A DNA stretch of 64,000 bases from Candidatus Iainarchaeum sp. (GTDB taxonomy: Archaea; Iainarchaeota; Iainarchaeia; Iainarchaeales; VGJJ01). The first letter of the stretch is position 1. Each line of letters begins with the position of its first letter. Below are positions 29,037-48,608 of this stretch, piece after piece. The notes below the pieces were generated by a model that did no database searches, had not been told where the DNA came from, and saw only the letters and a program-made list of their open reading frames with translations. Position numbers and translations under genes: made by a program. The stretch covers positions 1-64,000 of the forward strand of contig JAZDJQ010000001.1 in NCBI GenBank assembly GCA_043803765.1. The letters run 5' to 3'.

Positions 29037-32000
29037 ATGCGGTTGTTACTGATACTAATCATCCTTCTTCTTACCGGGTGCATTCAGAACAAAATGACGG
29101 CAGGAGAAATAGCGGTTTGTATTGAATCAACACACGTAAGTGTGACGACCATCCCACACTGCCTTTCATCTACTGCGTGTGAGAAAGAATGGGATGCAAA
29201 AATCAAATTAGGAACATTTAGCAAAACGCTAGTCGGAGGAACAATATATCAAGCAAGAAACGGGATTGAAAAAACATGGGAATCGCTCAACAAAGCAGCC
29301 GAAACATTAGAAAAAGTTAAACAATCTTGTGAGAAAGGAAGTTTCCTAACAATATCATCAGAAGGATCGATTGCTACTGGACAAATATATGCTGCATTGA
29401 AATCAAGTGAAGAAGCCCATGTTCAGGCAATCAATTCAGCCGTTTCAGCCGTAACAAGCGGAAGTAAACGAGAATTAATCTGGGTAAAAGATTCAATGGC
29501 ATTCAACGCATACGCAGAACTGCTTGCGCTCACCCAATCATTGGCTGGAGAAGAAGAAACCAACCCCATTGCAGAGAAAGTAAAAGAAAATCAGGCATAT
29601 TATGAAAAAATAGGCACGGTGCTCTCTGAAAAAGAAATACCGCATTATGCGATAGCACTAGATGACGCCTACAAGTGGTATGATACTGGGATAAAAGTAT
29701 TTTATCCAGACAAAAAACAACCCATTCTGTGGTTTTCAACAATTTGGAAAACAGGAATACAATCCATCATCAGTTCAACGAATTGGGAAAAACAACTAGC
29801 TACTATTCAACAAATTCAAGGAGATGAAGTCATTCAGAGCATCACCCGCGTTGTCTCGCCCGACAAGGGAAGTGCGATTGAAATAATCCGATTAATTGAC
29901 ACATTGGATAAGGGGATAATTGAATTAGAAAATGAAGAAAATAATAAAATGAATGATTTGACAGCAAGATTAGAAAAAAGTAAAGAAAAACTAGAAAAAA
30001 ACAAGATGATGCAGCAGGAACAAGAGGCAGGAAAACTACTCGCAACCTATTACAATACGAACCCGCCAATAATGGAAAAAAATGAAAAAAAAGAATATAA
30101 CAAAATAATTCTAGAGATTGAAGAAACGATAGAAAAAGTGAAAAATGAAAAAAAACAAAATCCATTGCCAATAGGAAAGAGAGTTGCAACATTGAGGGAA
30201 ACAGAGAGAAAAATAACGGAGATCGAATCGTTCATGAAAGAGGAAGAGCAAAATGCGGCAGAATGGGGTGCGTGGTGCAAAAAAAAGAGCAACGAGGAAA
30301 AAATAACAATAATTACCGAATATGCGTGCACAGCCCTGTTAGAAGAACACAACTTTATGGAAGAAAACAAGGATGGTGCGCTCGCACAAACAAGATTGAT
30401 TACTTGCGTGAACGAATTGAATAATGCGTATTTGGCAATAGAAGAAAAAGGAACAGAATGGAAAAAAGAGGATTTTATTTATCAGTTCGGGGAAGAGGCG
30501 GCCGAGTATGGGTGTAAAAGCCAATTACAAAATATTGCGAATGAATATGAGAATAATTCACTTACGCAAGAGTTGCATGAACTGGCAAAAAAAACCGCGC
30601 GCGAGTCAGTTGCACTCCAAGCCGCATTGGAAAAAAAGCTGGTTGCTCAAGGAAAAAAAGAAATTTTGACAAAAGCAGAAAAAACACTGGCAAAAGTAGA
30701 AAAGTGGCTGCCACTATCAAAACAAATTGCGGTGATTATTGAATTGGAGGAAGTCAGCAGTTCAATGCAGATAGAACTATACCAAATAATAAATGAAAAT
30801 ACCCAAAAAGGCAATTGGATTTTCAGCCAACCTAACAAAATAGTAGAAAATGGGGAAGGAGAAGAAGAAGTGTCTTTTTTTGTTGAAAATCCTATTGGAA
30901 AAGAAGTAGTATTAGACAACCCGATTCAATTGAAGAATCCCTTTACTCAATTCGTATTTACCAATGAAAGTGAAAATAAGATAAAGAAAGGAGAACCCAT
31001 CATCATTAGTAATGGGGTTATTCCAATTCAAGGAAAATGGGTAAATGGAAAAGCCAGTTTTCAATGGGGGCAATCACAAATAACAAAAGAAATTGGAATG
31101 ATTTGGGGAAACGTAGCAGAACAAATAATCAAAATAGAAATGAACAATCCTGCACAAAACGGGATAATAGAATGGAAAACAGAATTGCCTGATTCAATAA
31201 ATGAAAAAACAATAAATGCATCTCACGAAGGAAAAAGTAGTAGTGTTGAAAAAATAGACAAAATAGCGAAAGGAACAATCTATGTAAACGAAGCGATTGA
31301 AAAAATAATTGTTTCATTTCAGCAAGAAAACATATTTCACACAACCACACAGGAATCTTCTATTCAGAATGGAGAAAAAAAATTAACACAATACGTGGTA
31401 ACAATTCAAAGCCACCTCCAACAAGAAGCGGTTGGTGATGTAACAACAGGAATTTTACTAAATTGGATAGGTGGAGAAACGGCCGCGTTTGATGAAAAAG
31501 GAAAAAAAATAGGGTATGTCGTCGGCCCATTAGGAGAAATTATCCTAAGCAAAATTGCCTTTTCTCCAATGGGAATAAGAGAAATAACAATAATCAAAAC
31601 GGAAGAAGCGAATACCGCCACGAATGTAAAAGAAATATTACTGGAAAAAATAATTGATGCAACAAAAAGCAACAATATCGAATTTGCAGCGGAGGCTGCT
31701 AAATTAGCAAGTGTGATAAAAAATGAAACGGATATTGAAAAATTTCCTGCGCATGCACAAAAACTAAGCGCACTATTAGACAAAATAGAAAAAGAAAAAA
31801 ACACAGCAAACCAGACCTATGCAAATTGGGACGCGGTGATGGAAAAAATAAATGAAAATAACGTTTGGAATGAACAGATTGAAATACTCGCACAAAAGGG
31901 AAAAATGGAAAAAGAGAATGAAAAATGGAAAGAATTGCAACAAACGACCGCAACACTAGAAAAGATAGTAAACGAAGAAATAGAAAAAAATACAACACAA

Positions 32001-32729
32001 GACAAGGAACCTACTAAAATCGCAATAGAAAATATATTGCAGAAAATTGGAAAAATAGAGGAATGGATTGCCAAATACAAAATAGGAATTAACATTGGAT
32101 GCGCAAAGCTTGGAGAAATAGGGTATTATTGCCCAATAACAGAGGAAGGGCTTCGAGATATTACTAATAAAACAAAGAAAGATAGAAAAGTAGCCGAAAA
32201 CTTACAAAAAAAAGCGATTTTAGAAAATAAAGACACAGAAGAAACGGCTTTGCTGTCTGAACGTGTTCAGAATAATTTAGAAAACATTTCAAACGGATTT
32301 TCAGCAATAAAAGAAACGGCCGCTATGTTATTGGAAGAAATAACAAAAAATGCCAATCTATCAAACAATGAAGAAGTGAAATCGGCAAAGGAAAAAGCAG
32401 AAAACTTTTTTGAAAACGAAGAATATGGAAAGAGCATTTTCGTTTCTAAAAATTTGGTTAATTATTTAGCAGAAAATAAGATGATTGGATTAGAAAACTT
32501 CCCGGCAGAAGGGTGGCCATTAATAGGACTGATAATAGGAATTGGCGGATTTATTGCATATCGTTATCGAAAAAAACCAGTAGAAGAAAAAAAACAACAG
32601 AAACCACTGCCAAGAGCGCACACAACAACACAACCTAATTTTCCATCGAGCGAACCAATTTATAGTGGCGTATCAAGACCCCTGCGCAAGCAAATGGAAG
32701 ACCGATCAGCAGTGAAAGAAGAAGCATAA
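29037..32729 (+). CDS. Large lipoprotein-like coiled-coil protein with C-terminal TM
   Basis: LLTGC lipobox-like N-terminus; E/K-rich helices; WPLIGLIIGIGGFIAY anchor. Confidence 0.75.
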   Translation: MRLLLILIILLLTGCIQNKMTAGEIAVCIESTHVSVTTIPHCLSSTACEKEWDAKIKLGTFSKTLVGGTIYQARNGIEKTWESLNKAAETLEKVKQSCEKGSFLTISSEGSIATGQIYAALKSSEEAHVQAINSAVSAVTSGSKRELIWVKDSMAFNAYAELLALTQSLAGEEETNPIAEKVKENQAYYEKIGTVLSEKEIPHYAIALDDAYKWYDTGIKVFYPDKKQPILWFSTIWKTGIQSIISSTNWEKQLATIQQIQGDEVIQSITRVVSPDKGSAIEIIRLIDTLDKGIIELENEENNKMNDLTARLEKSKEKLEKNKMMQQEQEAGKLLATYYNTNPPIMEKNEKKEYNKIILEIEETIEKVKNEKKQNPLPIGKRVATLRETERKITEIESFMKEEEQNAAEWGAWCKKKSNEEKITIITEYACTALLEEHNFMEENKDGALAQTRLITCVNELNNAYLAIEEKGTEWKKEDFIYQFGEEAAEYGCKSQLQNIANEYENNSLTQELHELAKKTARESVALQAALEKKLVAQGKKEILTKAEKTLAKVEKWLPLSKQIAVIIELEEVSSSMQIELYQIINENTQKGNWIFSQPNKIVENGEGEEEVSFFVENPIGKEVVLDNPIQLKNPFTQFVFTNESENKIKKGEPIIISNGVIPIQGKWVNGKASFQWGQSQITKEIGMIWGNVAEQIIKIEMNNPAQNGIIEWKTELPDSINEKTINASHEGKSSSVEKIDKIAKGTIYVNEAIEKIIVSFQQENIFHTTTQESSIQNGEKKLTQYVVTIQSHLQQEAVGDVTTGILLNWIGGETAAFDEKGKKIGYVVGPLGEIILSKIAFSPMGIREITIIKTEEANTATNVKEILLEKIIDATKSNNIEFAAEAAKLASVIKNETDIEKFPAHAQKLSALLDKIEKEKNTANQTYANWDAVMEKINENNVWNEQIEILAQKGKMEKENEKWKELQQTTATLEKIVNEEIEKNTTQDKEPTKIAIENILQKIGKIEEWIAKYKIGINIGCAKLGEIGYYCPITEEGLRDITNKTKKDRKVAENLQKKAILENKDTEETALLSERVQNNLENISNGFSAIKETAAMLLEEITKNANLSNNEEVKSAKEKAENFFENEEYGKSIFVSKNLVNYLAENKMIGLENFPAEGWPLIGLIIGIGGFIAYRYRKKPVEEKKQQKPLPRAHTTTQPNFPSSEPIYSGVSRPLRKQMEDRSAVKEEA

Positions 32730-34151: not shown

Positions 34152-35036
34152 ATGGAATTATCAAGCAAAAGTGAAGAAAAAATTGTTGAAATGCCCGTTC
34201 AACAATTTGCACACCAAAATACGATTAATGAATTTAGACAAGAATTATTAGTAACGGGCTATTCTCCTAAAACGATTAAAATGTATTTAATTTATTCTAA
34301 AAAATTTTTGGAACAAACTCAAAAAGAAATATCCTCGCTTTCAAAACAAGATGTTATTGCATTTCTTGCAAAGGCAAAAGAGAAGAATGTTTCGAACGCA
34401 ACGCTTTCGCTAATGCATTCTGCATTAAAGTTTTTTTTAACAGAACATTTGAAATTGAATGTGGTAGATGAAATTAAAATTCCTAAGAAGGCAAAAAAAC
34501 TGCCAGTAGTATTAACTGTTTCAGAAATTAAAGATATTTTTCAGCACACCCGCCATGGAAGAAATAGATTATTACTACAATTTATTTATTCAACAGGTTG
34601 TCGAGTGAGCGAAGCGGTTAAAATGAAAACAGAAGATATTGATTGGGAAAATGGGGTTGCACGAGTGCAAGGGGGAAAAGGAAACAAAGATCGTATTGTT
34701 GTGATTTCTCAAAAATGGGCAGGAAACATAAAAAAATATTTAAAACGTAAAAAAAATAATTCACCTTTCCTTTTTTCAAAAAAAAATGGAAAATCGTTAT
34801 CGACAGACACCGTGGAACGAATCATTCGGAATGCTGCAAAGGAATTGGGTATAACAAAAAGGGTTACCCCCCACGTGTTACGTCATTCTTTTGCCACTCA
34901 CTTGCTAGAAAGTGGAGAAAATATCAGAAAAATTCAATTATTATTAGGTCATGCTAATTTGAGTACAACAGCCATCTATACCCACGTGAGTAAAGAGGAG
35001 TTGAAAAAAGTGCAAAGTCCGTTAGATAAAATGTAA
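34152..35036 (+). CDS. xerA: Tyrosine recombinase XerA
   Basis: SAM-like N domain; TGCRVSE, GKGNKDR, TPHVLRHSFATHLL, LLGHANLSTTAIYTHV. Confidence 0.88.
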   Translation: MELSSKSEEKIVEMPVQQFAHQNTINEFRQELLVTGYSPKTIKMYLIYSKKFLEQTQKEISSLSKQDVIAFLAKAKEKNVSNATLSLMHSALKFFLTEHLKLNVVDEIKIPKKAKKLPVVLTVSEIKDIFQHTRHGRNRLLLQFIYSTGCRVSEAVKMKTEDIDWENGVARVQGGKGNKDRIVVISQKWAGNIKKYLKRKKNNSPFLFSKKNGKSLSTDTVERIIRNAAKELGITKRVTPHVLRHSFATHLLESGENIRKIQLLLGHANLSTTAIYTHVSKEELKKVQSPLDKM

Positions 35037-35059
35037 TTATGTATTCAAGTAATACATAA
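35037..35059. promoter_or_regulatory. Inverted repeat TTATGT-N11-ACATAA, site 1
   Basis: TTATGTATT caagt AATACATAA directly after the xerA stop. Confidence 0.5.
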
Positions 35060-35193
35060 CAATGTAGTGCCCCGACACTTCCGGTAATAATTTAAAATGA
35101 TAAAATTGCCCGCGTTAATACCCTAGTATTATATACCATATTTGGGTTCTATGCATACTTGATTTTTTGTATTAAATCAGGGGGAAACAAAAT

Positions 35194-35523
35194 ATGACCG
35201 TACGACTATCAAAACTGTTCGGCATGGACATCTATACAGATAATGCTGAATATAAGGGAAAAGTGTTCGATCTCGTGATTAATCTCGAGAAGGGAAAAAT
35301 AGAGACCATGACGACAGAACCATTAAAGGTTCGAACTAAACTAGAAGCTCGAAAGATTATATCGGAAAAAAGTATTCCTTACCAAAACATTCTATCGGCT
35401 AAAGATATTTTGTTGGTAGGAACACGAAATCGTGCTCCAGTAGAGGAACCCGAAGAGGAATCACGTTCTCGTACAGGAACGCTGCATCGACCACCCTATC
35501 AACCCTATACTCGACGTCATTAA
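35194..35523 (+). CDS. PRC-barrel domain protein
   Basis: LSKLFGMDIYTDNAEYKGKVFDLVINLEKG..IPYQNILSAKDILLV. Confidence 0.85.
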   Translation: MTVRLSKLFGMDIYTDNAEYKGKVFDLVINLEKGKIETMTTEPLKVRTKLEARKIISEKSIPYQNILSAKDILLVGTRNRAPVEEPEEESRSRTGTLHRPPYQPYTRRH

Positions 35524-35553
35524 TTTTTCAGACGCCATATAGGATTAAATAGT

Positions 35554-35580
35554 ACTTATGTTTCATAAAACAACATAAGT
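35554..35580. promoter_or_regulatory. Inverted repeat TTATGT-N11-ACATAA, site 2
   Basis: ACTTATGTT tcataaaac AACATAAGT. Confidence 0.5.
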
Positions 35581-35630
35581 GTGGTTTAGTAATATTATGA
35601 TTCAGTAGTGGAAGTGTGGGGGGTATCCTA

Positions 35631-36230
35631 ATGGTTAAAGCATACTATATTCAATACAAATTTATCCTACCAGAAGCAATTAAACATTCAACGTATACAT
35701 ACCAAAAGCTCTTTCGGGCAATTTATGGTTATACTCAAAATGTGACTAAATCAAATGGTAAAGTTTATCATTATCACCGAAAAGGGGTATTTTCAGACGT
35801 ACCCTACATTCGTCCCGGAAAGAATGCAATTATTATTCACCCATCTTCTTTTCCTAAATTTAAGCAATTTTGTGCTACTGGACAGAATCCTTCCCATAAT
35901 TGGCGTTCTAAAGGGGATTGGAAGGCTGTTTATTATATGGATGAAAAAGAAATCGATGACACAAAAGTGGTGAGGGCATTAGAAGACCTTTTAGATCGAA
36001 CCTATATTTCTCCAAACGAAAAAACACCCCAACCCATTACAGAAGGATTGAGCACAATCTTGGACAAAATCAAACTAAACGAAACGATTGAAGAAAGAGA
36101 AAAGCAGCACGTTTTGAATGAATCCCAATCGGTTCTTTCCAACGAGTGGTTTCGTTCTCATTACACCCACTCTCAAAAATTAACTGATTTTAATGATAAA
36201 GTGAAATCACTGCGTGGGTTTCATAGTTGA
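35631..36230 (+). CDS. Hypothetical protein, possibly Cas2/PaaX-like ferredoxin fold
   Basis: YYIQYK..QKLFRAIYGY..KGVF..GKNAIII pattern; fold call is inference. Confidence 0.6.
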   Translation: MVKAYYIQYKFILPEAIKHSTYTYQKLFRAIYGYTQNVTKSNGKVYHYHRKGVFSDVPYIRPGKNAIIIHPSSFPKFKQFCATGQNPSHNWRSKGDWKAVYYMDEKEIDDTKVVRALEDLLDRTYISPNEKTPQPITEGLSTILDKIKLNETIEEREKQHVLNESQSVLSNEWFRSHYTHSQKLTDFNDKVKSLRGFHS

Positions 36231-36680
36231 TTCTGCCTCGATTTCCTCTTCTATCAATTCTTTCACCGACACGATAAGATTCTTCTTTCTCCACTTCATT
36301 TTTCCCCCCACCATATTCGCTTCCAACAACCCCGAATCAACCAGTGTTTTGAGGTAGGGGTATAAGCTTCGTTCATTTTGATAAGTAATCCCAAATAACT
36401 CATTCACGCGACGTAATATTTCTTCCATACTCACCCACTCTTCATAATCTAAGACTTTGGTGATGTGGTGTGCTTGTGTTCCTTCTTTGAATGTTAAATG
36501 ATCCCACAGATTGACTACTCGATACCTGTTGGTAGTCGTCAAAGGGGTCAATCGTTCACTTCCCCTAGTTAATGAATTTTTTCTTGCTATTTCTCTAAAC
36601 TCATTTGTCTGATTGTCTTCTGCCCATCGTTGAATGCTGCTAACCGACCTAAAGAAGCTTCTAAGCAACATCTTCAACAT
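36207..36680 (-). CDS. Winged-helix DNA-binding protein
   Basis: WVSMEEILRRV..SLYPYLKTLVDSGLLEA..GGKMKWR. Confidence 0.72.
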   Translation of the reverse strand: MLKMLLRSFFRSVSSIQRWAEDNQTNEFREIARKNSLTRGSERLTPLTTTNRYRVVNLWDHLTFKEGTQAHHITKVLDYEEWVSMEEILRRVNELFGITYQNERSLYPYLKTLVDSGLLEANMVGGKMKWRKKNLIVSVKELIEEEIEAESTMKPTQ

Positions 36681-36779
36681 GGTAATTACCGTAATGATAG
36701 TAATTACTTAAAAACCTTATGGTAATTACTAGTAATTACCAAAAACCCACAAAAAACAAAAACAATTGTGGTAATTACG
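36681..36779. repeat. Cluster of palindromic GTAATTAC octamers
   Basis: Perfect copies at 36682, 36700, 36722, 36732 and 36771, a degenerate one at 36691; 36721-36740 is a perfect 20-bp palindrome. Confidence 0.85.
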
Positions 36780-37013
36780 AAAAAAGTTAATAAATTCGAT
36801 TAAAAAAACAAAATGGGCGGAAAGAAAATGATTCCAACAACAAAACAAAAACAAAAAGAATCAAAAAACGTTAATTTTTTAATCAAAATCAACGAAAATT
36901 GTCGAAATGAGCCTTTGTTTTTCAGTAGTTGATAGAAAAAATGCACTTTTTATCAATTATGAGGGCACAAAAACAGTCCGAAAAAAGACTTTCGAAAAAA
37001 AAGCAATATCGAG

Positions 37014-37088
37014 TAGCGGGGGAAGGATTTGAACCTTCGATCTTCGGGTTATGAGCCCGACGGGCACTCCAGGCTGCCCCGCCCCGCT
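37014..37088 (-). tRNA. Initiator tRNA-Met (CAT)
   Basis: Full cloverleaf, A1:U72, GGG/CCC anticodon stem, CAT anticodon; position 8 is C. Confidence 0.95.
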
Positions 37089-37199
37089 TTAACGTTATTT
37101 AGTTAGTGTCTAGTTGTTGCTTTTTGGTTGATTTCTTTTCTTTTATTGCTTTGCACCATTCTTATTAAATGCGTGCTGTTGTCCTAATTTGTGTGTTTT

Positions 37200-37739
37200 T
37201 TAGAGTATTTTTTGAAGCGAAGTCAACTCGGTTCTAAGCGTAGTGATATTCTTTTGCATCTCCTTTTGTTTCTTTTTTCCATCTACTGGATTCATTAATT
37301 CCCCACATTCGGGGCATCTAAATTCGTATTGTGCGGCAATCTCAAAAGGTGTTTCTTCGCACTCTTTTTTACATACAAACATTTCATGGCTGTTTTCAAA
37401 TCGCGCTCTTTGTTCTAGTTTTTGGAGCATCTCTGCTTGTTGTTCTAAAATTAATTCAACGATTCGTCGTTGTTTGATTTCCCACGTGTAGGTATACCAT
37501 CCCGAGTTTTTATTTTTTGTTTTGTTGTAGCACGCAATTCCTCGGTAGTGGAGCCGATTTAGGATGCTTCGTATTTCTGTGATTTTGAGGTGCTTCATTC
37601 TGTTTTCAATATCTTCATCCAAGCATTTCCCGTTTTTTTCTAAGCAGATTTTTACTACTTCTTGTGCTTCTTCTCCCCCGACCGCAGTGAGAAATTCTCT
37701 TGCAATTTTGAAGTCGAGTAGTGTGTTGGGTTTCGTCAT
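37200..37739 (-). CDS. tfe: Transcription factor E (TFIIE alpha)
   Basis: IRSILNRLHYRG, SGWYTYTW, C..C/FRCPECG zinc ribbon. Confidence 0.92.
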   Translation of the reverse strand: MTKPNTLLDFKIAREFLTAVGGEEAQEVVKICLEKNGKCLDEDIENRMKHLKITEIRSILNRLHYRGIACYNKTKNKNSGWYTYTWEIKQRRIVELILEQQAEMLQKLEQRARFENSHEMFVCKKECEETPFEIAAQYEFRCPECGELMNPVDGKKKQKEMQKNITTLRTELTSLQKIL

Positions 37740-37772
37740 TCCATCTTTTAGTATCGATACGGTTTAAATCAC

Positions 37773-38306
37773 CTATTTTTGCGTTTGCACATTTTTTCCT
37801 CGCGCGCTTGGAATAATGGTCTTTTTTCCTCCTTTGAAAACAAATTCTTCTTCCTTCCCCACCCACAAGTAATGTAGAAACACACTGAGTGCTGCCACTT
37901 CGCTGTGCGGTTGTCTTGTGATGCTAATATTGTAGTCGGCTTCTTGGTAGGCCGTTCCCGGAACTTTGTCTGCTCCTATCATGATGACTATTTTTTCTAG
38001 TTTTTGGATTTGTTTGATTGCGTCGCCCGGTTGTTTTCCATACATTGTGAGGTGGATAATGTGATATCCTTTTTCTTTGAATTGTTGTAGGGTTTTCCAT
38101 GGGTTTTTGTAGAATTCTATTTTGAATTTTCCTCCGAATGTTTGATTTATTTTTTCTACTGTTTGGGCAATGTGGTGGTCGTTTCTCTCGTTCAGCAATA
38201 TTCTCTGGGCACCGAATGCTCTTGCGACTAACGCGCAATGGGTTGTGATGCGGAGATCCCTATATTCTCGGTCGCTTAATCGGAGCACGACGATGTTTTT
38301 AGTTAT
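37773..38306 (-). CDS. trm56: tRNA (cytidine(56)-2'-O)-methyltransferase
   Basis: RDLRITTHCALVARAFGA, HLTMYG, QPHSEVAAL. Start probably ATA 38306. Confidence 0.92.
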   Translation of the reverse strand: MTKNIVVLRLSDREYRDLRITTHCALVARAFGAQRILLNERNDHHIAQTVEKINQTFGGKFKIEFYKNPWKTLQQFKEKGYHIIHLTMYGKQPGDAIKQIQKLEKIVIMIGADKVPGTAYQEADYNISITRQPHSEVAALSVFLHYLWVGKEEEFVFKGGKKTIIPSARGKNVQTQK

Positions 38307-43156: not shown

Positions 43157-43948
43157 ATGCGTAACGATTTTCCTTTTTCGCTTTCCCCCAGTGTTTTTCG
43201 GATAATCGCTTTTTTTATTTTTGGAGTAGTGGTTTATTTTTTGTATTCTTCTTTTTTTTCTTCCCCTTCCCATTCTATTTTTGTGGTGGATGATATTGTG
43301 GGTTGTGAGAATCTGGATCGTTCTTCGTATGGTGTTTCTTCTTCTATTTTTGGTGATCTTCCTTCTCCTCCTAAGTGTTTTGTTTCTATTCTTTCTGCTT
43401 TTCGTAACCGGTCTTTTGTTGATCTTAATTTTTTTGATTCGTCGTATTATCTTCAGCCAGAGTTTTATCCTAATTTTTTGTCTGAGGGTCTGCGTGTGTG
43501 GAAGAATCCGGATGATGCTCATTATGGAGTAGTGGGTTATGGTTCCTATCCTTCCCATTCCGATGTTCGTGTTGTTGCTCCTACAAAAGTGTATTTTTTT
43601 GTTTTTTCTGGGTTTGGGGTTCGGAGTGTTCAATCTGTTTCTCTTCGCGTTGTTTTTGAGAATCCGTCCGATGCTAATTATTTTTCTGTTTCATTAGATG
43701 AGGATACTTCGCAGGATTTTTTATTGGGCCCTACTTTTCCTAAGTTTCATCCTTTGTGGGTGCATCCGGTTATTCTGACGGTAATTCCTCTTGATTCTTC
43801 GTCTTCTCATTCGGCTACTATTTCAATCCAGACGGTTCGTTCGCTGGCGGATTTTTCTTCGGATCCTATCACGGAATTGTTTCTTTTTTTTGATTCGACG
43901 GATTATGTCGGGGGTCGGCAGGTTTATCGTTTGACTATTCGTGAGTGA
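43157..43948 (+). CDS. Membrane-anchored QPEF/GPTFP family protein (copy 3)
   Basis: TM; LPSPP, YYLQPEFYP, LLGPTFPKFHPLW. Confidence 0.75.
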   Translation: MRNDFPFSLSPSVFRIIAFFIFGVVVYFLYSSFFSSPSHSIFVVDDIVGCENLDRSSYGVSSSIFGDLPSPPKCFVSILSAFRNRSFVDLNFFDSSYYLQPEFYPNFLSEGLRVWKNPDDAHYGVVGYGSYPSHSDVRVVAPTKVYFFVFSGFGVRSVQSVSLRVVFENPSDANYFSVSLDEDTSQDFLLGPTFPKFHPLWVHPVILTVIPLDSSSSHSATISIQTVRSLADFSSDPITELFLFFDSTDYVGGRQVYRLTIRE

Positions 43949-44030
43949 TTTTTATTCAGTTTCTTTAATTGTTCTCATTGGGGCCGTGTTTAACGTCATT
44001 CATTTTAAATCAAAAGTTCCCCTTTTCTTG

Positions 44031-47000
44031 ATGTCTTTCGTTCATGGAAGAGTGTTGATTCATTGTCTTAGTGTTCTTTTTCTTGTTGCGGTGATATCAT
44101 GGCCGGTGATTGGTCAGGAGTTGATAGTGGAGCGGGTCTTGCCGGATGCTCCTCTTTTTTCTATTATATCCCCTCTTGATAATGATGGGGTGAGTGGGGA
44201 TGTTCTTTTTATCATTAAGCCTTCTTCTCCTCTTTCTCGTTCATCCATTCGTTTGATGGATCGTTCTTCTGATTTTGTTTCTTCTTTTTCTGAGTCGGAA
44301 TCCTATACGGTTTCATGGCCTTCTTTATCCGTGCGGGATGGGGAGTATTCTTTTGAGATTTCGGCTTGTGATGATTCGCGTTGTGAGACGCGTGAGTTAA
44401 GTGTTCGAGTAAGAAATGGGCTTGAGGATGTTTCTGTTTCTCCAGATGATTCTACCGTTTCTCCTGTTTCGGATGATTCCATTCCAAGCGGCAGTTCTTC
44501 TTCTCCTTCTTCTTCTCGTCCGGATGTTCGTGAATCCAATCGTTCATCTTCTACTATTTCGGTGACTCCTTCTAATCATGTTGGGGCATTCTCTTTGTAT
44601 CGTGGTTCGACTCAAAAAAACTCGACGGGGGATGATTTTGTGATTCGTCCCGGTTCGTATTCGGTGGATGCTCATTTTTTGGAGAATGCGTTGAATGTGC
44701 ATGTTGAGAATGTTCGTCTTGATTCTTCTAATGTTTTGTTTTTTTTTGAAAACGATGTGTTGGATTCTTTTTCTATCGGGAAAGTTAAGTATTCTGTTTC
44801 CCGTTCTTCTTCATTATCTATTCCTTATTCCTTTGGTTCTGCCTCGCTCGATCTTGCAGGAGAGCCTCTTTCCTATAATTGGATTTGTTTGAGTTGGTCT
44901 CGTTCTAGGGAAAAGTGTGAGAGTGAGTGGGTTTCTCCTTCTTCTTCTCTTTTTACTTTTGATTTTGTTTCATCCGTTGTTGTTTTGGCTCATGCTGCTC
45001 CCGTGGCTGTTCCTACTGCCCCTGCGGGTGTTCCTACCCCCGTGTCAACGGTTTCTCCTGTTGTTCGTCCGGTCGTTGTTTCTCCGGGCGTTGTGTCTCC
45101 TCCTGTTGTTTCTCACGATGATGTTGTTTCTCTCTCTGCTTCCAATCTTCCTGCACGCGCTATTTTGTTTGATGGGAATGGGAATGAGATTCGTTCTTCT
45201 TCTGGGCGTTTTGATGTTGCGAAGGGTGTTTATGATGTAGGTATTTTCTTTATTGATTCTCCTATTGGTTTCGTTTTTCTTGAAAATGTCCGTGTTGACC
45301 AGAATGGGGTGTTGCTCATTGCAGATGATTCGGTTGATTATTCTTCTATTTCTTCTCCTCCTGATTCGAATTGGTTGGGGATTGTTTCTTTTGATTCTGA
45401 ATATTCTTTTTCTGCCGGGCTTGTTTCGATTCGTCCTCCCGAGAGTGTGAGTGGATATTTTGAGTGTTCTTCTTGGGATGTGAGGGAGAAAAAGTGTTCG
45501 GTTTCATTTGAACCTGTTTCTTCTTCTGATTCAATGGGAGATCTTTCTCCTCTTTTTTCCCGTTTTCGTGAGTCCTTGCCCGATTCGGCTCAATTTTCTT
45601 TTGTTTCTCTCCCTCTTGCATACGGTTGGAGTGTTTCTCCTATGAATATTCTTTTGGAACAGCCCTTGCTTAGTTTTGCAGCTAATGATATTCCGCATAT
45701 GAAGGCGACTGTTTCTAATTATTTCATTGATTCGGGGGATGTTCCTATTGTTGCTTCTCTTACTTTTCCGGATGGTTCGGTTCATGATTTGGATTCAAAT
45801 GCGATTGTTCCTCTTTCAAGTGGAGAATTTGATATTTTTCCTTTTCGCCCTCGTAATTTTGTTCCCGGGTTGTATACGATTACCGTGAAGGGTAAATCCA
45901 ATAGTGAGTCGCTTGTTTCTTCACGTCCTTCTGTTGTTTCTTTTTCTCCTCCTTCGTCTTCTCCTTCTTCTCTTTCATTTGCTTCTCCTCCCGTTTCTGC
46001 TTCTCGTTCATTTTATTGGGGTCTTGTTGCGGTGAACACGATGCATAGTATTTATCGTCCGGGGGAAACTGCTGAGTTTGAGATTGTGGTATTGGATAAG
46101 GAGAGTTTTGGGGTGAAGGGTGCTTCGGTTACTCTTTCAATCACGTCTCCCATCTCGGGTTCATCTAGCGTACTTTCTACTCCTTCTGGAATATTGGAGA
46201 CGACAACGCCGGGTATTTACATTGCCAAGCTTCCCGTAACCGAGGAGGGAACTTATCGTGTTTTGGTTGATGCGTTAGCCGATGGTATTGATTCGTCTAT
46301 TCAAACTACTTTTGATGTTCATTCTCGTTATGATTTTGATATTGTTCGTTGGACGGCTACTAAAATAGATCCTGCTCGTCTTCCCGTCCCTGTCGAATTG
46401 ACGATTAGTCCTGTTTCGAGCACGGTAAAGAATGTTACTGTTCGTGAGTTTGTTCCTAAAGAGTTTGATATTGTTTCGGATCAAAACGTTTGGGTGTATG
46501 AGACCGCGAATGAGAAGGTGATTGAGTGGAGAAGTGTGGCGTTGGATTCCAATGCTCCTGCGGTATTATCTTATTCTTATTCGGTTCCAGACCTAAAACC
46601 GTGGTTGTATCTTTTGGGTCCTATTGAAGTGAGTCCTATTTCTTCTATTCCTTCTCCTCGTGATTCTTTTTGGGAGGCGCGTAGTTGGATGGTGGCCGTG
46701 GATGAAAATCCTACTTCCAAATTGTTCTTTCGTCGAACGGGGTTTAGGACGGTCGCCGTGGAGCCGTCGCCGAATGATGTGAATTGTGGGGTGGGGTGTG
46801 ATATTGATTCTTACCTTGCGGGGGTTCAGTCCTTGTATAACCTTTCCGATATCAATGGGACTACTACCGATACGAACGCGGGGGTTACGGGAACGACGGC
46901 AGGTATTAAGAAATATTTTTCAGCGGTATCGTGGGCGCTTGTTCCGCAGACGATTGTTACCTCCGGTACGTGGATGGCTGGAATTGCGTGTATCACCGGC

Positions 47001-48608
47001 AGTACCCTTGATAATAACACGGCTCCTGCTTTTGCTATTTATCGCTGGATTGCTGAAACGGATAGCAATGGAGAACGTATCGTGAGTCGATTTAATGCTT
47101 CCGAGATGTGTCCTATTACAACGGCGGCAATGCGCCAAAACACTAAAGCGGGAAACGTATCGAGTGTTACTTTTAATCGGGGGGACAAAATCGTGGTGGA
47201 GGTCTTGGCGGCAGTGAATTCCACTGTCCCGCCGCCTACTAGTCGTACTATTAGTTATCGTTTTGGAAATTCGAGTACCCCAAATGATGGTAATGTTATT
47301 CTTCCTTCGGGTGTTACGTTGCGTTTTGTCGGAGACGCTAATACGATGTTGGTTTCTCCGTCGAATGATTCGAATAAGGCGATTAATGTTCCTTTTGTAG
47401 TGGATACGAATGCGACGTGCGAGCCCCATTTGGATAATGAGTCCTCTTATTTTGATTGTGGGGATGTGAATGCGGTTCTCCAGTATTGCGTCCTCTCTTC
47501 CGGTCAGTGTGGGTCATTCTCCGACATGAATTCGGATTCTTCTTCTCCTTTGTATATTTCAAGCGGTTCTTTTGTGCAGAGTGATGATGTTCTCAATATG
47601 AGTGACACGAATACGTTTTCTTTTACTGTTTCCGGGACGCAGGTTGGGAGTTACACGTTGCGTTCCAAGGTTGATGGGGATTGGCTTCTTGCTACTAAGT
47701 ATTCTAGTGGTGCGAATGATCGTAATATCACTATTTATGTTCCCCCCGATATTAACATCACCAAACTGGATGGTTATCTGGATACTGGCGATTTTCCTGT
47801 TTTCAATTATTTTGTTGATGGAAATCTCATGATTGATTTTAATGTGTTAAGTGTTGATAGGAATAGTTTGTTGTTGGATTTGAATTATTCTTCTTCTGCT
47901 TCCCCGTATACGGGAACGGCGGTTGTGGATGATGTTAATTTGTCATTGCTTCCTTCTTCGGGTTCTTGGTATTGTGATGATACTGATTTCACTGATATGA
48001 CTACTTGTGGGATTGATTGGAATATTTCAGCAGTAGCGGATGGTAATTATTGGATTCATGCTACGTTATCCGATTCGTTGAATAATATTGATATCGATGT
48101 TTCCGATCGGAATGTGGGAATTGGGAATTTTGTTCCGCCTGATTATTCTTTTGTTCTTTTCCTTCCTTCTTCGGGTTGTACATTAGGGAAGGGTAATATT
48201 ACGGGGGGTGTTTCCTGTCAAAAGGGATACATGGAGTCCACCGACACGACGGGTGTTTCGGATGCTAATCAGATTGCTCCAGAGGGTCAGTCTGCCTCGG
48301 TTCCTTTTTTTGTTTATGATAATCAGTCTTCTACTTCTTCTGATTTGAATATTGTTTTGGATTTGAATACTGCTCTTTCTGCAGAGCTTCGTCTTAAGGC
48401 TTCCTTGAGTGCTTCCGGGTATGAATCGGGTTGTTCGGGTGATACTGCTGTTGGGTGTATTCTTCTTTCTACTTCTACTCAAAATATTGGTAAGGCGGTT
48501 TATTCGGTTGGTTCGCAGGATTTGAATGTCTGGTTTTGGGGTGATTTTGTTTTGGCTTCGGTTGGGAGTTCGGATGTGAATGTGGATAGTAACAGCATCA
48601 GTCCGTGA
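44031..48608 (+). CDS. Giant secreted multi-domain surface protein with C-terminal subunit-like domain
   Basis: Signal peptide, Ig/MG2-like domains (IYRPGETAEFEIVVLD), no C-terminal TM; last ~155 aa resemble 5965..6603. Confidence 0.75.
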   Translation: MSFVHGRVLIHCLSVLFLVAVISWPVIGQELIVERVLPDAPLFSIISPLDNDGVSGDVLFIIKPSSPLSRSSIRLMDRSSDFVSSFSESESYTVSWPSLSVRDGEYSFEISACDDSRCETRELSVRVRNGLEDVSVSPDDSTVSPVSDDSIPSGSSSSPSSSRPDVRESNRSSSTISVTPSNHVGAFSLYRGSTQKNSTGDDFVIRPGSYSVDAHFLENALNVHVENVRLDSSNVLFFFENDVLDSFSIGKVKYSVSRSSSLSIPYSFGSASLDLAGEPLSYNWICLSWSRSREKCESEWVSPSSSLFTFDFVSSVVVLAHAAPVAVPTAPAGVPTPVSTVSPVVRPVVVSPGVVSPPVVSHDDVVSLSASNLPARAILFDGNGNEIRSSSGRFDVAKGVYDVGIFFIDSPIGFVFLENVRVDQNGVLLIADDSVDYSSISSPPDSNWLGIVSFDSEYSFSAGLVSIRPPESVSGYFECSSWDVREKKCSVSFEPVSSSDSMGDLSPLFSRFRESLPDSAQFSFVSLPLAYGWSVSPMNILLEQPLLSFAANDIPHMKATVSNYFIDSGDVPIVASLTFPDGSVHDLDSNAIVPLSSGEFDIFPFRPRNFVPGLYTITVKGKSNSESLVSSRPSVVSFSPPSSSPSSLSFASPPVSASRSFYWGLVAVNTMHSIYRPGETAEFEIVVLDKESFGVKGASVTLSITSPISGSSSVLSTPSGILETTTPGIYIAKLPVTEEGTYRVLVDALADGIDSSIQTTFDVHSRYDFDIVRWTATKIDPARLPVPVELTISPVSSTVKNVTVREFVPKEFDIVSDQNVWVYETANEKVIEWRSVALDSNAPAVLSYSYSVPDLKPWLYLLGPIEVSPISSIPSPRDSFWEARSWMVAVDENPTSKLFFRRTGFRTVAVEPSPNDVNCGVGCDIDSYLAGVQSLYNLSDINGTTTDTNAGVTGTTAGIKKYFSAVSWALVPQTIVTSGTWMAGIACITGSTLDNNTAPAFAIYRWIAETDSNGERIVSRFNASEMCPITTAAMRQNTKAGNVSSVTFNRGDKIVVEVLAAVNSTVPPPTSRTISYRFGNSSTPNDGNVILPSGVTLRFVGDANTMLVSPSNDSNKAINVPFVVDTNATCEPHLDNESSYFDCGDVNAVLQYCVLSSGQCGSFSDMNSDSSSPLYISSGSFVQSDDVLNMSDTNTFSFTVSGTQVGSYTLRSKVDGDWLLATKYSSGANDRNITIYVPPDINITKLDGYLDTGDFPVFNYFVDGNLMIDFNVLSVDRNSLLLDLNYSSSASPYTGTAVVDDVNLSLLPSSGSWYCDDTDFTDMTTCGIDWNISAVADGNYWIHATLSDSLNNIDIDVSDRNVGIGNFVPPDYSFVLFLPSSGCTLGKGNITGGVSCQKGYMESTDTTGVSDANQIAPEGQSASVPFFVYDNQSSTSSDLNIVLDLNTALSAELRLKASLSASGYESGCSGDTAVGCILLSTSTQNIGKAVYSVGSQDLNVWFWGDFVLASVGSSDVNVDSNSISP

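Follow-up and report, generated by a model that had tools for sequence, protein, structure and literature searches.

The closest described counterparts of the locus treated here are the origins of replication of Pyrococcus (oriC), Sulfolobus (oriC1), and Haloferax (oriC1). These origins, reviewed in PMC4010727, carry repeated, inverted elements in which a C/G-string accompanies a core of TTCCA, the origin recognition boxes (ORBs) bound by Orc1/Cdc6; the elements are unique in their genomes, lie at a switch of strand skew, and have AT-rich DNA beside them. We describe a locus with similar characteristics in 64 kb of DNA from a DPANN archaeon, Candidatus Iainarchaeum sp. (hereafter the window), which is the first part of the 99-kb contig C1 of a 1.02-Mb genome in 19 contigs (G000). 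Two proteins of the locus have named relatives under Diapherotrites/Iainarchaeum labels. The locus differs from these ORB origins in having no adjacent initiator gene, a 4-nt spacing within the ORB-like elements, half of the dyad, and a gene for a PRC-barrel protein enclosed by the elements, and its Orc1 sites are predicted. We consider, with a probability of roughly 0.7, that it would be the main origin of the chromosome, of the ORB type, unlinked from the orc1/cdc6 genes and situated beside an autoregulated, order-specific gene for a winged helix-turn-helix (wHTH) protein. The evidence is computational throughout and comprises composition, motifs, synteny, and profile and structure-model searches.

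The Sulfolobus origin oriC3 resembles the present locus in lying beside a winged-helix gene (WhiP) and not beside orc1/cdc6. The account of oriC3 excerpted from PMC4010727 gives it neither ORB nor mini-ORB, whereas ORB-like elements are found here. By description, WhiP is related to Cdt1, and the wHTH found here has one small domain resembling PadR. A lineage-restricted, non-initiator protein on an essential origin motif has been described for Sulfolobus oriC1 (UBP and its motif ucm), and a similar protein may be encoded here; according to PMC12141716, UBP binds at hundreds of positions, with ucm placed between the ORBs, whereas the palindromic boxes of the present study (GTAATTAC) are clustered at a single locus, where they overlie the promoter of the wHTH gene itself at a distance of 1 kb from the ORB-like pair. 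Autoregulated repressors of the PadR/MarR type share with the wHTH palindromes over their own TATA box and start as well as the winged-helix fold. In contrast to them, the wHTH has a sub-threshold PadR similarity, three to nine sites instead of one or two, no other target cluster, and a position fixed beside the putative origin across the order. In bacterial dnaA-oriC and plasmid rep-iteron modules, sites are present both at the origin and over the protein's own promoter; the likeness of the wHTH to these is an analogy and lends no support to a role in initiation.

In the literature, we found no experimentally mapped DPANN origin and only skew-based or orc1-based placements. One Diapherotrite genome, according to a portion of PMC5905446, was rotated to a cdc6 gene.

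Strand-composition switch at the locus

The raw AT skew of the forward strand changed from about +0.3 to about −0.35 near 36–37 kb. At third codon positions, the AT skew (AT3) was +0.26 to +0.44 at 24–34 kb in genes of both strands, and it was −0.3 to −0.8, with G over C, on both gene strands from 37 kb to the contig end (measured over 37–70 kb). As the sign was the same for genes on either strand, the skew is a property of the DNA strand and not an effect of gene orientation, which bears out the initial annotation of the window as A-rich to the left and T-rich to the right regardless of gene direction. In a step test with 20-kb flanks, the left/right step of 0.89 at C1:36000 was the largest of 230 positions tested in G000, of which approximately 9% reached 0.25; the bias had likewise been suggested to be strongest nearby. 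The switch had been placed at ~37.05 kb, and this position needed correction, although the switch itself is real. The cumulative third-position (A−T) curve peaked at 35705, with a plateau at 35346–36151, and the third-position crossing at 35.3–36.2 kb lies to the left of the boxes; the raw-skew switch appears at ~37.05 kb because the A-tracts of the spacer pull the raw skew rightwards. The strongly A-rich left domain is limited to about 24–35 kb, and 1–24 kb is neutral. Long neutral domains also interrupt the skew on C12 and the left of C14 in G000 and at 340–440 and 490–690 kb in G015, a closed genome of the same genus. The third-position asymmetry is extreme for an archaeon in G000, G015, and G040 (C1:151–171 kb), with AT3 reaching −0.8 and the corresponding GC skew (GC3) +0.6.

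The locus and its switch were conserved across genera and several families. The gene order xerA, PRC-barrel gene, 199-aa gene, wHTH gene, tfe, and trm56 was common to G000 and two closed genomes of other families (G033 and G019). The features of the locus in the window are as follows.

34152..35036, + strand: xerA, gene for an archaeal tyrosine recombinase of the Xer type; at the left of the conserved gene cluster at the putative origin
35067..35091, + strand: left ORB-like element; intergenic, pointing towards the PRC-barrel gene
35194..35523, + strand: PRC-barrel gene (Pfam PF05239, 2.3e-6, 27.9 bits, cut-off 21.2)
35601..35625, − strand: right ORB-like element, in the opposite orientation to the left one
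35631..36230 (listed open reading frame start 35616), + strand: gene for a 199-aa protein (P0122), no assigned family; convergent with the wHTH gene
36207..36680, − strand: gene for the 157-aa winged-helix protein (P0001, wHTH); single copy, order-specific
36682..36778, no strand: five GTAATTAC palindromes, read as a putative operator of the wHTH gene
36779..37012, no strand: A-tract spacer, the most AT-rich part of the locus; possibly an unwinding region
37013..37083, − strand: tRNA-Met (CAU), adjoining the spacer; conserved within the genus
37200..37739, − strand: tfe, transcription factor E alpha (Pfam TFIIE_alpha, 1.1e-17; AT3 −0.49); syntenic in G033 and G019

In G015, which was reassembled from separate stretches, the largest step among 505 positions tested (0.82) was found at 166 kb, the site of its wHTH gene, and G013 and G014, with the same switch as G015, also carried it at the locus. 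The wHTH gene of G033 is located at 981 kb and the opposite switch at ~340 kb, giving T-rich and A-rich halves of ~600 and 640 kb, respectively; the corresponding positions in G019 are 770 kb and ~350 kb, with halves of ~420 kb each. For ten further genomes with flanking sequence, a drop of at least 0.25 across the locus was observed in six. The skew of G040 changed from +0.29 to −0.73 across the locus, and steps of at least 0.25 were present in G035, G025, G018, and G027. The sharpness of the switch, taken alone, would suit an assembly chimera or a recent inversion breakpoint, an alternative of which the initial annotation had warned. Since the gene order is shared by G000, G033, and G019, and both order and switch recur in many species that were assembled independently, three of them as closed genomes, this explanation was discounted as practically ruled out.

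T and G were co-enriched on the strands leaving the site, and enrichment in both is the usual signature of the leading strand. The rRNA operon of G033 (+ strand, T-rich half) and that of G019 (minus strand, A-rich half) are both transcribed away from the locus. For G019, ~71% and ~73% of the coding positions in the two halves pointed away (~72% overall). The opposite switches were gradual (~22–34 kb on contig C7 of G000, ~340 kb in G033, and ~350 kb in G019); the T-to-A switch on C7 is the largest negative step in G000 (−0.58) and a candidate termination zone. Because of the T/G polarity, the rRNA operons pointing away, and the gene orientation in G019, the site reads as an origin. Forks would depart from it in both directions, and the strand that is more often single-stranded would become T- and G-rich; a fork-linked enrichment of this kind would therefore appear as a switch independent of gene strand. 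The initial annotation had proposed an origin from the skew inversion, and the conserved switch and its polarity favor that part of its claim over a terminus, a misjoin, or a recent inversion; the novel initiator it had attached to the origin is not the leading reading.

A terminus or fork trap at this locus, with the wHTH acting as a terminator protein and xerA serving dimer resolution, was weighed against the same data. The xerA gene lies 1.2 kb from the wHTH gene, the slight lean of genes to the A-rich strand in G000, G015, and G033 would be co-oriented if forks converged here, and in Bacillus subtilis a small terminator protein of the winged-helix kind is known, whose sites adjoin the autoregulated gene that encodes it. 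However, the T/G enrichment on the departing strands is that of leading strands, the rRNA operons of G033 and G019 and ~72% of the coding sequence of G019 point away, the opposite switches are gradual, and ORB-like elements lie at the crossing. A terminus is thus very unlikely.

ORB-like elements around the PRC-barrel gene

No obvious ORB had been noticed in the initial annotation, but an inverted ORB-like pair is present just outside the interval that it had flagged, at 35067–35091 (+) and 35601–35625 (−). The element consists of a C-string, 4 nt, and then TTCC-ACTA, and its two copies lie in the spacers flanking the PRC-barrel gene, with the cores inward and the C/G-strings outward. The C/G-string and the TTCCACT core are common to the element and to published ORBs, as represented by the consensus in PMC1868953 and the oligonucleotides in PMC1904270. 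The right element is 80 bp from the cumulative AT3 peak of G000. This peak fell inside or beside the ORB-like pair in three strongly skewed genomes (G000, G015, and G013); its distance from the pair was 0.6 kb in G033 and 2 kb in G019. The spacers beside the elements are 63–75% AT.

A position weight matrix (PWM) was built from 18 instances of the element. In G000, it scored 29.8 bits for the left and 32.5 bits for the right element, the latter being the top match of the genome; the pair and one genic site (C9:5983) scored ~30 bits and all other sites below 19 bits, and block shuffles gave 4–7 matches of at least 14 bits. The two best intergenic matches in G015 formed an inverted pair, including one site outside the training set, and all others bar one genic site were likewise under 19 bits. 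Across ~1.55 Mb of DNA from relatives, to which G033 contributed 560 kb and G019 520 kb, all 23 matches of at least 19 bits were located 0.76–2.4 kb from the wHTH gene, mostly as inverted pairs 560–810 bp apart. The left element was kept in the equivalent spacer of G033 and G019, and the PRC-barrel orthologues there were also flanked by a pair.

With a strict 16-mer of the element, 74 matches were obtained in 60 of the 151 genomes sampled from the phylum, as against none with the backwards control; most of the matches were no more than 2.4 kb from the wHTH gene. G000 has two matches, one of which is the right element. Of the 49 matches outside the genus, 38 were no farther than 3.7 kb from the wHTH gene, one was at 13.7 kb, six were on other contigs, and four belonged to genomes in which the wHTH had no match. 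The genus itself accounted for 25, of which 8 were near the wHTH gene and most of the others corresponded to a conserved genic site. This third strong element (C9:5983–6007 in G000, L166; 46588 in G015) lies inside a 429-aa gene of no known family, just after a HerA/DUF87 ATPase gene, and is kept at that site across the genus. In sister orders, G148, which lacks the wHTH, has the 16-mer 1 bp from a PRC-barrel gene, and the matches in G041 and G079 are in unrelated contexts. An ORB-like core without the C-string was also observed at 245039 in G015, 98 bp upstream of one orc1/cdc6 gene; G033 has a partial core at the equivalent offset, whereas G000 and G019 have none.

The absence of orc1/cdc6 near the locus, as initially annotated, was confirmed for the whole window; the two copies of G000 are on contigs C13 and C10, with nearly no upstream spacer. 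The origin core would be the inverted pair around the PRC-barrel gene (35067–35625), and the Orc1/Cdc6 proteins encoded elsewhere in the genome may bind it. With an ORB-like pair at the zero crossing of the skew, two Orc1/Cdc6 genes elsewhere, and boxes in the layout of an operator, the earlier proposal of a novel initiator is not favored as the leading reading.

The pair could instead serve the PRC-barrel and xerA genes in regulation or recombination, for example by bounding an invertible segment, with the skew switch merely nearby. Inverted repeats do flank a short segment beside a tyrosine recombinase gene, the element accompanies a PRC-barrel gene even in G148, and an unrelated gene contains a third copy. 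This explanation is nevertheless highly improbable, as the orientation of the PRC-barrel gene relative to xerA is constant in G000, G033, and G019, the two copies in G000 differ beyond the 12-nt core, the element resembles ORBs, and it coincides with the skew crossing in five genomes. A perfect 9-5-9 palindrome is located at 35036–35058, directly after the xerA stop codon; it was considered as a dif candidate and rejected for want of conservation in G015, G033, and G019.

The winged-helix gene and the GTAATTAC boxes

Five perfect palindromic octamers directly upstream of a winged-helix gene had been reported in the initial annotation, and both the boxes and the gene are as described. All five copies of GTAATTAC in the window are found at 36682–36778 (expected number 0.75), and none of 100 shuffles reached five. 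The genome of G000 has nine copies, the other four of which are inside genes, and G015 has 15 boxes in all, whose sole cluster is at this locus. The wHTH gene lies directly downstream and starts 1 nt from the first box. The boxes are at −9, −27, −49, −59, and −98 from the ATG, on both sides of a TATA-like TTTTTAA at −34 to −28 (36708–36714 on the + strand). Within the genus, the layout was fixed in 13 aligned loci: a box at −98, abutting boxes at −59/−49, TTTTTAA, a box at −27, and half-sites or a box up to the ATG. Boxes were present upstream of the wHTH gene in all 20 loci examined. Of the 151 genomes, 67 had paired boxes, and all 67 belong to the order. Among the 75 sites listed, 72 were within ~0.9 kb of the wHTH gene, two were ~1.8 kb away, and one was on another contig. 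When GTAATTAC was looked up in the literature, nothing but unrelated matches of the primer type came back.

The palindromes appear to overlap the core promoter and the start of the gene of a predicted regulator, as would be expected of an autoregulatory operator, and their layout is consistent with autorepression of a leaderless promoter by the wHTH. A simple operator, previously named as an alternative for the repeats, is thus the explanation that suits them, since the boxes bracket the TATA-like box and the start and are conserved in this position. Lying 1.1 kb rightwards of the putative origin core, the array would be bound by a dimeric wHTH repressing its own promoter.

The structure model of the wHTH contains a single winged-helix domain of ~90 residues (core residues 52–141, model confidence [pLDDT] 81–94), compared with the tandem winged helices of initiators of the WhiP/Cdt1 type. 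Residues 1–21 form a conserved basic amphipathic helix, which varies between families and is connected to the winged helix through a disordered linker. The match to PadR (PF03551) was 19.3 bits, below the gathering threshold of 27, and the protein was not assigned to PadR; 16 of 17 family members matched PadR weakly (best E 2e-4). The Foldseek list of PDB structures was headed by Fur, PadR, and RosR, with E values of ~1e-3 or weaker. No NCBIfam family and no significant PDB sequence match were retrieved for the wHTH, PHROG matches were weak, and a protein-atlas look-up returned only generic archaeal wHTH clusters. Comparison with the winged-helix domain at the C-terminus of Orc1 from the same genome revealed no profile similarity (hhalign probability 0.2%, E 0.29). 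One wHTH match was found in 36 of 41 relatives, including all 21 high-quality genomes. Exactly one match was found in 125 of the 151 phylum genomes and none in 11 genomes from other orders, and the gene was single copy in 52 of the 55 high-quality genomes of the phylum sample.

The 199-aa protein was found in 35 of 41 relatives, always on the same contig as the wHTH gene and at most 1.4 kb from it, and only among records labelled Iainarchaeota/Diapherotrites. Its alignment has 54 invariant columns, and its structure model (pLDDT 89) comprises a ferredoxin-like N-domain and a helical bundle. No Pfam, PDB, or PHROG match was obtained. In fold searches, the best Foldseek E value was 0.014 and VIA-align returned generic ferredoxin-like and helical-bundle matches (Z <8), none of which was a specific relative.

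AT content is 72–82% across 36660–36960, the maximum of the locus. Conserved non-coding islands are located between tRNA-Met and the boxes (~36790–36960, minus strand), with CTCA-y-T three times and TTAAC twice in the 13 loci of the genus. The CTCA-y-T islands were considered as ORB-like elements and rejected, as they do not score as such with the PWM in G000.

The unique array, its fixed position, and the AT-rich spacer suggest that the wHTH, perhaps together with the 199-aa protein, might be an origin factor: an initiator, an accessory of helicase loading or licensing, or a centromere-like partition protein. The GTAATTAC nucleoprotein complex would then be part of the origin and autoregulation its by-product, by analogy with DnaA boxes at dnaA and iterons at plasmid rep genes. 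In two whole genomes the only GTAATTAC cluster is at this locus, with no other target visible, and the wHTH gene, almost always single copy, is never found away from the putative origin. The steepest change of the pooled skew (+0.48 to +0.11) occurs across the box and A-tract spacer, which is also the AT-richest DNA. One family (f3) has further boxes 3' of the wHTH gene and ~1.8 kb away, which flank both gene ends and extend towards the ORB region, beyond the needs of a simple operator. UBP and ucm of Sulfolobus (PMC12141716) provide a precedent for a non-initiator at an origin. Against this, boxes around the TATA box and start are what plain autorepression predicts, the cumulative skew of G000 and G015 peaks not within the array but at the ORB-like pair, and the ORB-like element is also present in sister orders that lack the wHTH. 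The fold is, moreover, that of a generic regulator, with no similarity to the Orc1 winged-helix domain. We therefore hold an origin role of the wHTH to be possible but doubtful. Equally tentative is the proposal that the wHTH and the 199-aa protein form an order-wide private module inside an Orc1/ORB origin, binding GTAATTAC and acting as an accessory of licensing, helicase exit, or segregation.

Neighboring genes and assignment of the origin

The genes to the left of the wHTH gene are the 199-aa gene, the PRC-barrel gene, and xerA, and those to the right of the spacer are tRNA-Met, tfe, and trm56. XerA was assigned by the NCBIfam equivalog NF040815 (272.6 bits, cut-off 220), and it also matched Pfam Phage_integrase (2e-46); the gene has an equivalent position in G033 and G019. 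The tfe gene is the first of the strongly T-rich right domain. An Rfam scan of 35500–38000 returned the tRNA alone. Very large genes, mostly without Pfam matches, are located at 29037–32729 and 43941–48608 of the window (1230 and 1555 aa). At 442–477 kb, G015 contains a one-strand block with genes of up to 3393 aa and a strong skew of its own.

Several observations weigh against the assignment of the locus as an ORB-type origin beside an autoregulated wHTH gene. No orc1/cdc6 gene adjoins the locus; in the closed relatives, these genes are 47–160 kb away, unlike the adjacent initiator gene of ORB-type origins. The C-string is 4 nt from TTCC, compared with 9–10 nt in published ORBs, and the second half of the dyad (GGAA) is absent. 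The pair encloses a 330-bp gene and not a plain AT-rich unwinding region, and the AT-richest DNA is 1 kb away. The ORB-like core upstream of orc1 is clear in one of seven upstream regions (G015) and partial in G033. Three of the ten further genomes had no step at the locus (one of them with only 1.9 kb on one side), and one had a small opposite step. Rightwards of the locus, G015 is T-rich over only ~25 kb, and what is left of that half is neutral or A-rich. The f3 boxes described above speak against the operator part of the assignment. Finally, the genome-scale strand switch has the polarity of an origin, yet it is accompanied by a weak contrary gene-strand bias in G000, G015, and G033, whose coding sequence leans to the A-rich strand (56–58%), opposite to co-orientation with departing forks; much of the excess in G015 comes from a single 45-kb block of giant genes.

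If the assignment is true, origins in the order would have to be placed at the xerA/PRC-barrel/wHTH locus and not beside orc1/cdc6, and the rotation and skew checks of closed genomes would change accordingly. A short ORB variant would become available for studies of Orc1 binding. The two conserved, uncharacterized proteins encoded beside the origin would be candidates for lineage-specific factors of replication or segregation.

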